Shown one piece after another: positions 1,456-17,305 of a stretch of DNA of 64,000 nucleotides (the stretch's first letter is position 1; each line of letters begins with the position of its first letter). The notes under the pieces are model-generated. The model made no database searches. It was not told the origin of the DNA and saw only the letters and a list, made by a program, of their open reading frames with translations. Both the position numbers and the translations under genes were made by a program. This DNA is from a virus (taxonomy: Duplodnaviria; Caudoviricetes), in the IMG/VR virus record IMGVR_UViG_3300033073_000492, positions 1 through 64,000 of that record; one strand, 5' to 3'.

Positions 1456-2504
1456 GCATGGAATTCGTGAACCTTGTCAGAAATATACTCAACTTCCGAG
1501 TCTGTAAGTTCCGGATACATAGGCAAGCCCAAAACACCCCTAGAAAGCATCACACTAGTGCTCATCATGTCAGGTTTCGGAAAGTCTTTGCCGCTATCTA
1601 AGTCACCCAAAACATATTCATAGCTGATTTTACTAGTAATCCCATTCAGTACTAGATGTGTGTGCATTGAATTGCGGTCACTCATATAGATAACATACTT
1701 TTGATGTGCGTTGGCGACTGGTGAATCGCTTAAGCAAGTTAGTGGTAAATTTCTAAACGAGTCATTCCAGTATTTGGCTATCTTTTGTCTACGCAGTTGC
1801 CATCTATCTAGGTAACTTACACGAACCATGAGATGAGCGCAGTCTATCTCACTCATCTTGCTATTAGTACCCACTGTTTGAAAGTAGGGTTTAGAGTTAT
1901 CTTTGTAGTTTGATGCGTACATGTATAGGTGTTCATCGTTAGTAACTATTGCACCGCCGTTACCACTACTATTCAAGTTCTTAGTAGGATCGAAACTAAT
2001 TGCCATACCTAGGCCAACTTGACCATCAGCTACTAACCAATGCTGTGCCCCATCAACAATCACGTTATCACTTTTAAACAGTCTTTCAGACCAGGGCTTT
2101 CTTCCATACAATCCTACTATGCATGACAATGCGTTATCATACTCAATAACCCCAAAATTGTCTGTGTCGGCTAGTTCTATATCCCATCCTGCAGTTATAA
2201 ATGCGTTTAATGTTGCAGGGTATGTTAAGTTAGGTACTCTGATTGTAGGCTTAGCAATTTGTGTTCTCAATAGATATGAATGTTTATATCTAGCAATAAT
2301 CTCAAGTGCTTGAGTACCTGAATGCACAGTGATAGCATACCTAGTTTTAGTTTTATGCTTCAACCATTCTTCAAATGAACGAGTAAAATGGCCACCAACT
2401 AGTTGACCATCTTTCATTGCATCGTGAGTTGCGTTTAATAACTCAGCCCCTAGATTTTTATACTGTCTTTGAAGACCAGAATGGGGAACTAGTAAGCCAG
2501 TCAT
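1452..2504 (-). CDS. DegT/DnrJ/EryC1/StrS family PLP-dependent sugar aminotransferase
   Basis: Motifs SGTQALE, TYPATLNA, DGAQ, SFDPTKNL (PLP-binding Lys), GGAIVTND, NSKMSE and LPMYPEL. Confidence 0.92.
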   Translation of the reverse strand: MTGLLVPHSGLQRQYKNLGAELLNATHDAMKDGQLVGGHFTRSFEEWLKHKTKTRYAITVHSGTQALEIIARYKHSYLLRTQIAKPTIRVPNLTYPATLNAFITAGWDIELADTDNFGVIEYDNALSCIVGLYGRKPWSERLFKSDNVIVDGAQHWLVADGQVGLGMAISFDPTKNLNSSGNGGAIVTNDEHLYMYASNYKDNSKPYFQTVGTNSKMSEIDCAHLMVRVSYLDRWQLRRQKIAKYWNDSFRNLPLTCLSDSPVANAHQKYVIYMSDRNSMHTHLVLNGITSKISYEYVLGDLDSGKDFPKPDMMSTSVMLSRGVLGLPMYPELTDSEVEYISDKVHEFHA

Positions 2505-3429
2505 AATATAATTTAAATCCTTCTTCTACGTCTACTTTAGGGTCGAAACCAAAATCTCTACGCGCCGCATCAATGTTTAACGCACCACGACTAGGGAAGT
2601 CTAAGTCTCTGTCGCCCATGATAATCTCACCTTTGCCAACTATCTTCAAAGTAAGATTAGCAGCCTCTGCCAATGTGACTGAGTGGCTTTTGGTGATGTT
2701 GTAGATTCTGTTGTCGGTGTTATCACTGAGGCTGGCTGCAACGATTCCTCTTGCGGCATCTTCAACATACGTGAAGTCGAGCGTTTCGCCGCCGCCGTTA
2801 ACTCTAATCGGTCTTCCTCTGATAGCGTTGAGTAAGAACTTTGATATAACTCTGTCTTCCACGTCAAGTGGGCCATATACAGCAGAGGGGCGTATAATAG
2901 TATAATTGAGATTGTCACGGCGGCTATAATCTTGTACAAGTTTCTCGCCTGCCAACTTGAGTATTCCATATTGTCCTTGAGGTTTACAGTCATAGTCTTC
3001 CTTCACATCATTTTCAAAGTCACCATACACCATTGAACTACTGATGTAAACAAACTTGCGTACATCATAGTTCTTGCTTGCTTCTAGTAAGTTAATCAAG
3101 CCTTCACTCATAACTCTACTACCCCATGCGGGGTTACTATTAACTACCTTCTGTCTTGGGAAACTAGCACAGTGAATAACAATCTCTGGTTGTTCGATGT
3201 TGAATACTTCATCCATGCGTCTTGCATCGCATATGTCGTATTCATAGAGTCCACCAACATCTTCAATCTTCTTTAAACGTTCGTCCATCAAATAGTCTAG
3301 TTCATCTTGTGGGATGATGCCATAGTTTGTTTTGATGTCCATGATAGACACAATATGTCCCATGTCTTGTAGTTGTTTTACTACATTGTGACCTATAAGG
3401 CCAAGTCCGCCTGTTACTAAAATGTTCAT
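2458..3429 (-). CDS. NAD-dependent nucleotide-sugar epimerase/dehydratase (extended SDR)
   Basis: GGLGLIG Rossmann motif, SSSMVYG, YGILK (YxxxK), RPSAVYGP and DFTYVEDAA. Confidence 0.92.
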   Translation of the reverse strand: MNILVTGGLGLIGHNVVKQLQDMGHIVSIMDIKTNYGIIPQDELDYLMDERLKKIEDVGGLYEYDICDARRMDEVFNIEQPEIVIHCASFPRQKVVNSNPAWGSRVMSEGLINLLEASKNYDVRKFVYISSSMVYGDFENDVKEDYDCKPQGQYGILKLAGEKLVQDYSRRDNLNYTIIRPSAVYGPLDVEDRVISKFLLNAIRGRPIRVNGGGETLDFTYVEDAARGIVAASLSDNTDNRIYNITKSHSVTLAEAANLTLKIVGKGEIIMGDRDLDFPSRGALNIDAARRDFGFDPKVDVEEGFKLYYDWLTSSPFWSSKTV

Positions 3430-15866: not shown

Positions 15867-16069
15867 TCAATTTGCTCTAAACCATATTTGAGTATCAGAA
15901 AGGGAACAATTGAATGTTCCTTTTCCAATTCTAGTCTATATCCTATCTTGTTAACATCAACATTATGCCAATATCGTTCAACAGGCCAGTACTTGACGTT
16001 AGACTTCATCATGTGAGCCATAACTTCGGACAACTTGCCTTTAGGACAGAATAGTTTAACTGTATTCAT
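15863..16069 (-). CDS. hypothetical phage protein
   Basis: Start at MNTVKLF gives a short overlap with the upstream stop. Confidence 0.65.
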   Translation of the reverse strand: MNTVKLFCPKGKLSEVMAHMMKSNVKYWPVERYWHNVDVNKIGYRLELEKEHSIVPFLILKYGLEQID

Positions 16070-16637
16070 AGGGTGTGTCAGCCTGTGAGTAGTCAGCTGG
16101 GATCCTAGCTCCTTTAACATTGTCATACTCTTTGTAGTAATGTTCATTTTCTTTTACAATTCTAAAATCATCATACTTCAAACTAGCGAACGTTACTTCC
16201 TCTTTCTTTAACATATCACAGATAATGTATGTTGTTGTACAAGGTGCTGAGATAGTTTTGAATGGACTATGTTTAAACTCGTTCGCTTGCAATGCCTTAT
16301 GCATAGGGCTATTGGGTGAAAATATAATACGGGTTATGCCTAGCTTTTGATTGCGTAGTCGTATTTTATCGTAGATTGTGAGTGTTGTCAAGGTTGCTTC
16401 GTTCTCGTCATTGATGGTGACCAATGCGTTTTTGAACTTGATTGAACCTTTAGTGCTGGGATTGTCAGGAGTTTCTTTTGTACTCCACGGTACTTGTGCG
16501 TCAACGTGATTGACATAGTACGTTTCGCCATGAAATTTTAAGACCCACATGGGAATGGTCTCGTCTTGTAAGTGTGCTTTGTTAAAGTGGAAGACTACCT
16601 CTTTACATGCAAATTCAATCTATTGATTAGTTGTCAT
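16056..16637 (-). CDS. hypothetical phage protein with an in-frame TAG at codon 6 (readthrough gene or pseudogene)
   Basis: AGGAG-N6-ATG ACA ACT AAT CAA TAG ATT GAA TTT GCA TGT..., in frame with the track ORF starting at 16550; TAG at 16620-16622. Confidence 0.65.
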
Positions 16638-16935
16638 AAGTTTCTCCTGTGAAAATATAATCACCTTTCGGTGTGTTGAGTACAGTTTGTAATTGTACTC
16701 TATCTATATATCTCAACTTCAACCACATTTCTTCTTTTGTGGTTTCAGTTTTGATATAAATCTTATGCGAATCTGTGATAACTTCCTGTCCAGTATCGTA
16801 GTCACACCATCCACTGTCGTTTTCATATGTTACATACGGTCTTTCAACATGGCAGAATAGATTAGAACTATCTAGCCATTCGAAATCTTCGTCAGTGTAT
16901 GGTGATGGTAGATACCAGACTTTAGTAGTTATCAT
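16627..16935 (-). CDS. hypothetical phage protein
   Basis: 102-aa ORF with an ATGA overlap. Confidence 0.72.
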   Translation of the reverse strand: MITTKVWYLPSPYTDEDFEWLDSSNLFCHVERPYVTYENDSGWCDYDTGQEVITDSHKIYIKTETTKEEMWLKLRYIDRVQLQTVLNTPKGDYIFTGETYDN

Positions 16936-17177
16936 TTTTGCTTATGCTGTTCGCCACTGACTGGATCCATAGTAGGAGCAACCTTTGCAGCCTCTTCCGG
17001 AGTTGCGAATCTAGGAGGCTCACTAGTCCAATAGTTAGGCATGAAAGTCCATCCAAAACTTTTCCAGAACTTATGAATCAAATTGTTAGCGACAATGGTT
17101 GCCGCTAAGATGATTATTGAACCTAGTGCATATAAGATACTGCCTGCTAAAAAGACAGCCGCATTATCCATATCCAT
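16932..17177 (-). CDS. hypothetical membrane protein
   Basis: N-terminal hydrophobic helix (AAVFLAGSILYALGSIIILAATIVA); TAATG overlap. Confidence 0.72.
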   Translation of the reverse strand: MDMDNAAVFLAGSILYALGSIIILAATIVANNLIHKFWKSFGWTFMPNYWTSEPPRFATPEEAAKVAPTMDPVSGEQHKQK

Positions 17178-17305
17178 TAGATAACCTCGTAATCTTCTTT
17201 ACCTACACCACATTCTGGGCATTCGAATGTGTCAGGTAATTCATCCCACTTACCTTCTGTTGCTTCATCGTGGACGTGGCCACAAACAATACATACGTGT
17301 TCCAT
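17177..17305 (-). CDS. rubredoxin (42 aa, not in ORF track)
   Basis: MEHVCIVCGHVHDEATEGKWDELPDTFECPECGVGKEDYEVI: CxxC...W..LP..F.CPxCG; TAATG-coupled to rubrerythrin. Confidence 0.92.
   Translation of the reverse strand: MEHVCIVCGHVHDEATEGKWDELPDTFECPECGVGKEDYEVI

Follow-up and report, generated by a model that had tools for sequence, protein, structure and literature searches.

A conserved amber codon near the start of a phage gene and its linked tRNA(CUA): a candidate suppressor-gated gene in a T4-like phage contig

The DNA considered here is a 64-kb window (positions 1 to 64,000 of the IMG/VR virus record IMGVR_UViG_3300033073_000492; "the window" denotes this whole stretch), which forms the start of one 74,990-bp contig and which we take to be part of the genome of a large, uncultured T4-like phage. 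The subject is a gene on the minus strand (16056-16637) that carries an in-frame amber codon, TAG, shortly behind its start, together with a tRNA gene with the anticodon CUA, in the following tRNA(CUA), on the same strand. The gene is referred to as the gated gene, as it is a candidate for translation that depends on this tRNA. The contig is probably partial, the gene calls are crude, and all results are based on sequence. The locus comprises the following features, in which SD stands for Shine-Dalgarno motif and ORF for open reading frame:

16644-16648, minus strand: SD AGGAG with a 6-nt spacer to the ATG, as read from the sequence
16623-16637, minus strand: leader ATG ACA ACT AAT CAA (M-T-T-N-Q) with the ATG at 16637-16635, sharing 11 nt with the end of the upstream gene
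16620-16622, minus strand: amber TAG, codon 6, next base A, in frame with the tracked ORF
16059-16619, minus strand: body of the gated gene (protein P0001), 187 sense codons, followed by the TAA at 16058-16056
16551-16619, minus strand: 23 codons from the TAG up to the first canonical start, with the invariant motif FHFNK and the first strand of the N-terminal domain (N-domain)
16548-16550, minus strand: internal ATG (Met24, in a conserved P-M-W motif), without SD, chosen as the start by ORF callers
16380-16619, minus strand: N-terminal 'FHFNK' domain of all-beta type (residues 1-80), which is the core conserved in the family
16104-16373, minus strand: C-terminal alpha/beta domain (C-domain), residues 83-172, ferredoxin-like, followed by an acidic/aromatic tail
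17853-17929, minus strand: tRNA gene, anticodon CUA at 17895-17893, with encoded CCA, A73 and the acceptor pairs G1-C72, C2-G71 and G3-C70
16627-16935, minus strand: upstream 102-codon gene, whose TAA (16629-16627) overlaps the leader in an apparent operon; no Pfam or PHROG match

The preliminary description of this stretch had reported an AGGAG six nucleotides ahead of an ATG at 16637 that overlaps the upstream gene, and a TAG behind ACA ACT AAT CAA followed by 188 codons including the TAA; both readings are exact. The tracked ORF (16056-16550) begins at codon 24 after the TAG, and none of the codons ATG, GTG and TTG occurs within the 23 codons after the TAG of the window. The combination of an SD, an ATG, at most 15 codons, a TAG and a long ORF is found at one site in the 74,990-bp contig, which is the gated gene, while control arrangements with TAA and TGA are found at 2 and 0 sites, respectively. 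Outside the family of this gene (the FHFNK family), the SD-ATG-leader-TAG design occurs at background level, with 7 sites versus 7 for TAA and 7 for TGA.

The family of P0001 has more than 1300 database homologues, which fall into 153 clusters at 50% identity. Homologue DNA was obtained from 80 IMG/VR loci with the full-length protein as query, from 80 with the short form that has only the N-domain as query, and from several metagenome contigs; the reduced set consists of 124 distinct gene sequences with a protein identity of 58-100%. In all 124 distinct homologues, the first in-frame stop upstream of the FHFNK motif is TAG and never TAA or TGA. An SD-like motif lies ahead of the leader ATG in 116 of them. 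The leader of the relatives is composed of the ATG and 0-8 sense codons, most commonly one, and its sequence is not conserved. TAG-less relatives are rare, having been seen as a few distant relatives and in none of the 124 clade members, and they have methionine, threonine or asparagine at the TAG position; the origin of the TAG from AAG that had been suggested earlier finds no support. Eight of the nine single-base changes of TAG result in a sense codon, and several residues are tolerated at this position. Drift would thus erase an unselected TAG, yet 124 of 124 sequences keep it, and the TAG itself is therefore under selection. In the alignment of homologues that the preliminary description had recommended, the N-terminal extension is conserved, the TAG recurs, and the relatives are not a set of genes with a sense codon and without a CUA tRNA.

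Many database homologues have glutamine at the TAG position. Two of them were traced, and they match their records only when TAG is translated as glutamine (TAG=Q). The database glutamine is therefore an artefact of gene calling with TAG=Q, and glutamine was rejected as the residue at the TAG. A cultured representative is the Rhizobium phage RHph_I1_18 (MN988519), the finished genome of which contains an unannotated amber-gated ORF of 82 codons (L087:3977-4225). This ORF consists of ATG, four codons, TAG and then AAC, and an annotated 'tRNA-Pyl(cta)' begins 12 nt past its stop. At another locus, L189, a second ORF (approximately 2317-2980, plus strand) opens with 'ATG GCx TAG ATT GAA TA..' like the FHFNK family and then runs on as an unrelated protein of about 219 codons. 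This protein looks like a homing endonuclease; the true family gene follows directly downstream, and the arrangement resembles the capture of a gated start by an insertion.

In the 124 sequences, constraint behind the TAG was determined over 20 codons positioned by the FHFNK motif; they lie behind the TAG and ahead of the next methionine. Mean pairwise differences at codon positions 1, 2 and 3 are 0.175, 0.116 and 0.484, respectively, the synonymous share of differing codon pairs is 61%, and F-H-F-N is invariant. These substitutions show coding-type constraint, and the stretch between the TAG and the internal methionine is therefore translated; the preliminary description had called the first 23 codons behind the TAG, upstream of the SD-less tracked ATG, protein-like, and the constraint agrees with this. 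The same stretch forms the first strand of the N-domain, which is all-beta and reaches a pLDDT of 96.6 when residues 1-80 are modelled alone. A start at the internal ATG would remove this first strand from a domain modelled with high confidence.

The tRNA of the window is recognized by Rfam (RF00005, 43.4 bits at 17856-17929, minus strand, with a gathering threshold of 29) and by ARAGORN (17853-17929, anticodon cta), in the latter case only at relaxed threshold. Its 3' end lies 1215 nt upstream of the gated ATG, in agreement with the CUA tRNA that had been placed 1.2 kb upstream on the same strand. A T-loop of the form GTTCGAnTC and a 7-bp acceptor stem are present. The anticodon stem is weak, with mismatches at A27.G43 and A31.C39 and three Watson-Crick pairs instead of the regular 5 bp. 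However, pair 31-39 is C.A, A.C or C.C in 44 of 54 distinct relatives, and the short anticodon stem is thus a trait of this tRNA family and not a sign of decay. Compensatory changes are found at 12 of the 15 stem pairs among the 54 relatives, and the pairs G1-C72, C2-G71 and G3-C70, A73, the encoded CCA and a loop of the form YU-CUA-AA are nearly invariant. The compensatory pairs, together with the invariant acceptor GCG/CGC, A73 and CCA, indicate that tRNA(CUA) is under selection. Short anticodon stems have been linked to improved stop-codon reading (PMC13092985).

Of the 124 loci, 93 contain a tRNA(CUA), which in every case is encoded on the strand of the gene. It is usually located upstream, at a distance of 21 nt to 5 kb (median 462 nt), and in loci with short forms of the gene it abuts or overlaps the gene end. 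In such short forms, for example L190, L195, L199 and L218, the last dozen or so bases of the ORF overlap the start of the tRNA(CUA), and the stop codon lies within the tRNA gene. No tRNA(CUA) was found in the control loci (452 kb, taken from the same phage group), and the loci scanned for tRNA(CUA) contained no UAA- or UGA-reading tRNA.

Comparison of tRNA(CUA) with 354 other phage tRNAs yielded no consistent nearest isotype: the nearest non-CUA tRNAs are spread over 13 isotypes, with a glutamine tRNA being nearest for 1 of 92. Likewise, a synthetase cannot be named from the acceptor GCG/CGC and A73. The ARAGORN label 'tRNA-Pyl' reflects the CUA anticodon alone; a pyrrolysine system would combine the distinctive shape of tRNA-Pyl with pylS and pylBCD genes. 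The anticodon stem of tRNA(CUA) is short (3-4 bp), apparently unlike that of tRNA-Pyl, and general family scans of the neighbour genes, which included no search aimed at pyl genes, matched none of the pyl families. A promoter and terminator scan from the tRNA to the gated gene gave results not above chance. A rubrerythrin-like gene (PF02915, E 5e-16) and a 42-codon rubredoxin-like ORF are located between the two (window 17177-17805, minus strand), and a rubrerythrin-like/rubredoxin-like pair occupies the corresponding position between tRNA and gated gene in a relative (L003:7269-7846).

Genes of the contig include a gp55-like late sigma factor, recognized by eye from its translation, and a gp47-like gene with phosphoesterase motifs. 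Related contigs of 100-500 kb encode ribonucleotide reductase, PAAR and many tRNA genes; a blastn search against phage records gave no match. In the crude gene call of the contig, the stop codons are TAA (41), TGA (24) and TAG (1), so that TAG ends 1 of 66 genes. In the loci of the relatives they are TAA (701), TGA (251) and TAG (30), with TAG ending 30 of 982 called genes (about 3%). ORFs of 5223, 1125, 1094 and 1019 codons are open under the standard code (table 11), the 5223-codon ORF contains no TAG, and internal TAG is found in a single gene in 74,990 bp. As TAG is a rare but otherwise ordinary stop, there is no recoding of the genome: the code is the standard one, and TAG is depleted as a stop, not reassigned.

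The only TAG-terminated gene in the contig is the gp55-like one (contig 66860-67753). The gp47-like phosphoesterase gene follows 20 codons later in the same frame as this TAG (L001:2860-4827, which is contig 66860-68827, outside the window), and an efficient suppressor at this TAG would produce a gp55/gp47 fusion of about 656 residues. Such a read-through fusion was considered and rejected. In 70 distinct relatives, the stop of the gp55-like gene is TAA in 63, TAG in 5 and TGA in 2 cases, and the in-frame gp47-like arrangement is found in only 3. As neither the TAG nor the in-frame arrangement is conserved, the gp55-like TAG is an ordinary stop.

P0001 has no match to a Pfam or PHROG family and contains no Pth2 domain (PF01981). 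An AlphaFold model of the protein body has a pLDDT of 88.9. The N-domain has no clear match in the PDB, the best being OB-like proteins at a Z of 3.5, and the best matches of the C-domain are ferredoxin folds of the ACT/RRM type, which are weak (Z 4-5). Fold searches with the whole model and with the N-domain (Foldseek against the PDB; VIA-align wide) returned nothing clear. According to the alignment, many family members have an acidic tail at the C-terminus. Some proteins consist of the N-domain only, others have it joined to the C-domain or to Pth2, or placed after an unrelated N-terminal domain; in the protein P0192, the domain fused to the FHFNK domain is Pth2 (PF01981, E 1.6e-7), and P0218 is another Pth2-FHFNK fusion protein.

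A further link to Pth2 is found in the cultured Sinorhizobium phage Phosso (PV764938), where a gene annotated as 'peptidyl tRNA hydrolase' is itself amber-gated (L088:1872-2366). It consists of AGGAG, ATG AAA TAC TAG, with the TAG as 4th codon, and then 160 codons, and it matches Pth2 with an E of 3e-20. The first strand of the domain is lost if this gene is read from its annotated start (2034). The gene is located two genes upstream of the FHFNK-domain gene and about 5 kb from a tRNA(CUA); Phosso has two tRNA(CUA) genes, one of which is annotated as tRNA-Undet(nnn). In the loci L262-L266, the order is tRNA(CUA), amber-gated Pth2-like gene and FHFNK gene. The amber cassettes of Pth2 and of FHFNK are tied together by the Pth2 fusion and by the neighbourhood in Phosso.

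A short release-factor-like gene with PCRF and RF-1 domains and the GGQ motif (L094:590-1276) is located directly upstream of a TAG-less family member. By eye, it has the tripeptide PPT where release factor 1 (RF1) has PxT, and it contains an in-frame TGA at a position presumably occupied by tryptophan in RF1; L094 may thus belong to a phage that uses TGA=Trp. In the window, a circularly permuted two-piece transfer-messenger RNA (tmRNA) with the tag ANDESYALAA is encoded about 3 kb upstream (19698-20082, minus strand; Rfam RF04321, 129 bits), and the relative L003 also has one, with the tag ANDESFRIAA. Because the N-domain is fused to Pth2 in some proteins and, in other phages, has amber-gated Pth2, tRNA(CUA), a release-factor-like gene and a tmRNA as neighbours, the probable targets of the protein are tRNA, peptidyl-tRNA or stalled ribosomes. 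The gene context points, by association only, to the termination and rescue step of translation.

According to the preliminary description, the gene could be made only when a phage suppressor is active. Such a suppressor-dependent gate is the best-supported reading in view of the TAG in 124 of 124 and the tRNA in 93 of 124 sequences, and we regard it as probable that 16056-16637 is a conserved amber-gated gene which is translated only when the phage tRNA(CUA) out-competes RF1. Ribosomes would start at the strong SD and ATG and reach the UAG after five codons. Termination by host RF1 at this point would release a useless pentapeptide, whereas insertion of an amino acid by the phage tRNA(CUA) would lead to a protein of 192 residues. 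The output would track the amount of charged phage suppressor tRNA relative to RF1 activity, and the arrangement would act as a one-codon switch or sensor that is dedicated, in this contig, to a single gene. We infer for this reading that tRNA(CUA) is expressed, charged and decodes this UAG, and we extend this to the other parts of the original proposal, namely the read-through itself, its timing and the inserted residue, and to a regulatory purpose. The identity of the inserted residue probably does not matter, because the site precedes the first strand of the fold and is occupied by any of three residues in TAG-less relatives.

Several observations weigh against this gate. The tRNA of the window is missed by ARAGORN at default settings, and its Rfam score of 43 bits compares with 49-63 bits in three relatives scanned. 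It also sits inside a 146-codon ORF (17729-18169, minus strand), which is either a chance open frame or a case of dual DNA use. In 31 of the 124 loci, no tRNA(CUA) was found within the fetched flanks of 3-6 kb. TAG-less family members nevertheless adjoin a tRNA(CUA) in L093, where the gene is 150 nt downstream of the tRNA, and in Phosso, so that translation dependence cannot be the whole explanation of the tRNA linkage. The gene for the gp55-like late sigma factor is still TAG-terminated, and an efficient suppressor would read through this stop. Finally, any benefit of gating to the phage is conjecture. As for the ORF around the tRNA, it ends inside the start of the rubrerythrin-like gene, and its only Pfam match is a weak one to Glyoxalase_8, below the cut-off.

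More tentatively, and with rather little confidence, the tRNA(CUA) and the early UAG can be seen as a self-referential sensor of UAG decoding, in which the suppressor tRNA is set against host RF1 and factors acting on tRNA, peptidyl-tRNA or stalled ribosomes are the outputs. These outputs would be the FHFNK-domain protein here and Pth2 in other phages. If this were true, a rescue or clean-up kit, with the tmRNA 3 kb away, would be made in proportion to the read-through caused by the phage, and the system would amount to a prfB-like feedback loop made from a tRNA.

Among the explanations that do without a gate, re-initiation behind a minigene fares best, although we consider it unlikely. In this case, the leader would terminate at the TAG, the main protein would restart at a non-canonical codon (ATT here) without the tRNA, and the TAG would be kept only to make termination dependent on RF1. 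Such a restart would fit the codon after the TAG, which is ATT, ATC or ATA in 98 of the 124 sequences, AUU being a known rare bacterial start codon. It would also fit the rare TAG-less relatives in which an ATG sits exactly at the TAG position, and six homologues in which the ATG directly abuts the TAG. In the other 26 sequences, however, the next codon is not AUH; the codons found there are AAT, AAC (as in RHph_I1_18), GTA, GTT, ACT, AAA, CAA and CCC. Moreover, TAA or TGA would serve a minigene equally well, yet they are found in none of the 124 sequences, in a group where TAG makes up only about 3% of stops, and the minigene offers no reason for the tight co-oriented linkage to tRNA(CUA). 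Leader-ORF coupling in general would go with any stop and with a start codon of the downstream ORF's own, and what is found is TAG throughout and no ATG, GTG or TTG in 23 codons.

It is less likely still that the TAG is a frozen accident or 'addiction', which drifted into an unconstrained N-terminal site after a suppressor tRNA had come into being and merely ties the tRNA to the gene without a regulatory role. That the TAG position tolerates any residue would be in line with this, as would the joint movement of tRNA and gene through a hypervariable region in many phage lineages. A return to a sense codon should then be neutral or beneficial and therefore common, but it is seen in 0 of 124 clade members. 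In addition, the unrelated Pth2 family has the same early-TAG design, which argues for a reused regulatory device.

A genome-wide reassignment of TAG (code-15 type), with the gated gene as the first example noticed, is very improbable. A phage suppressor tRNA is indeed present, TAG is depleted among stops, and gene callers of the databases have translated many homologues with TAG=Q. On the other hand, internal TAG is confined to one gene in the 75 kb, the standard code leaves the giant ORFs uninterrupted, TAG terminates the gp55-like gene, for which TAA is the stop in 63 of 70 relatives, and about 3% of the genes in the relatives' loci end in TAG. Finally, a sequencing or assembly error, a recent nonsense mutation or a pseudogene, of which the first two had been named as the simple alternative in the preliminary description and which a single contig with an ORF track starting at an internal ATG might suggest, deserves practically no credence, because all relatives share this TAG across independent samples and assemblies, the finished genome of a cultured phage among them, at 58-100% identity, and the codons behind it are under purifying selection.

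With the amber gate as the preferred reading, the 'orphan' suppressor tRNAs of standard-code phages would gain a concrete and conserved client. The gate would be a natural translational switch operated by a tRNA and distributed across hundreds of environmental T4-like and jumbo phages, and the smallest form of phage stop-codon recoding, with one codon, one gene and one tRNA. The gated gene is mis-annotated everywhere, being cut at an internal methionine, absent as in MN988519, or provided with a spurious glutamine. The link to Pth2, tmRNA and a release factor points to a phage function at translation termination or rescue that has not been described so far.

Recoding of stop codons with suppressor tRNAs is established in crAss-like, Lak and other gut phages, in which TAG is read as glutamine ('code 15') or TGA as tryptophan ('code 4') at many internal stops in late genes (bioRxiv 10.1101/2021.08.26.457843; PMC7886860). 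Literature searches returned only papers on such genome-wide recoding and no description of a single-gene amber gate. The case described here resembles the recoded phages in that a tRNA with a stop anticodon is encoded by the phage, that in-frame stops would make genes translatable only after this tRNA has been made, that the stop codon is depleted as a terminator, and that an expression switch has been proposed. In the recoded phages, however, many late, structural and lysis genes contain many stops which are aligned with glutamine or tryptophan. Here, a single gene of the early region has a single TAG at codon 2-10 that is indifferent to the residue and linked to a tRNA. Unlike in code-15 phages, this TAG is not aligned with glutamine in true TAG-less homologues, and the rest of the genome uses the standard code, with TAG still terminating. 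The hosts of the system also differ, being environmental T4-like and jumbo phages from freshwater, soil and Rhizobium instead of gut phages.

Amber suppressors of the laboratory (supE/supF type; T4 psu tRNAs) are similar in that a tRNA(CUA) decodes UAG against RF1. Suppression is favoured by a purine after the UAG, a classical context effect, and this preference is matched by the base after the TAG in the 124 homologues, which is A in 111, G in 11, C in 2 and T in none. Laboratory suppressors are mutants selected in the laboratory, whereas the pairing described here is natural and has been kept by selection in more than 100 lineages. The 'bar' minigenes of phage lambda, with peptidyl-tRNA drop-off that is countered by Pth, share the ORF of two to six codons behind a strong SD, and the phage group considered here carries Pth2. 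In contrast to the gated gene, where the downstream frame encodes a conserved protein, bar minigenes may have any of the stops and are not followed by an in-frame protein. In the autoregulated prfB gene for release factor 2, an early in-frame stop (UGA) converts decoding efficiency into gene output, as is proposed for the UAG here. Whereas a +1 frameshift is needed in prfB, which encodes the very factor that recognizes its stop, the frame of the gated gene is unchanged across the TAG, its product is without a release factor domain in a Pfam scan, and a dedicated tRNA would compete with RF1.

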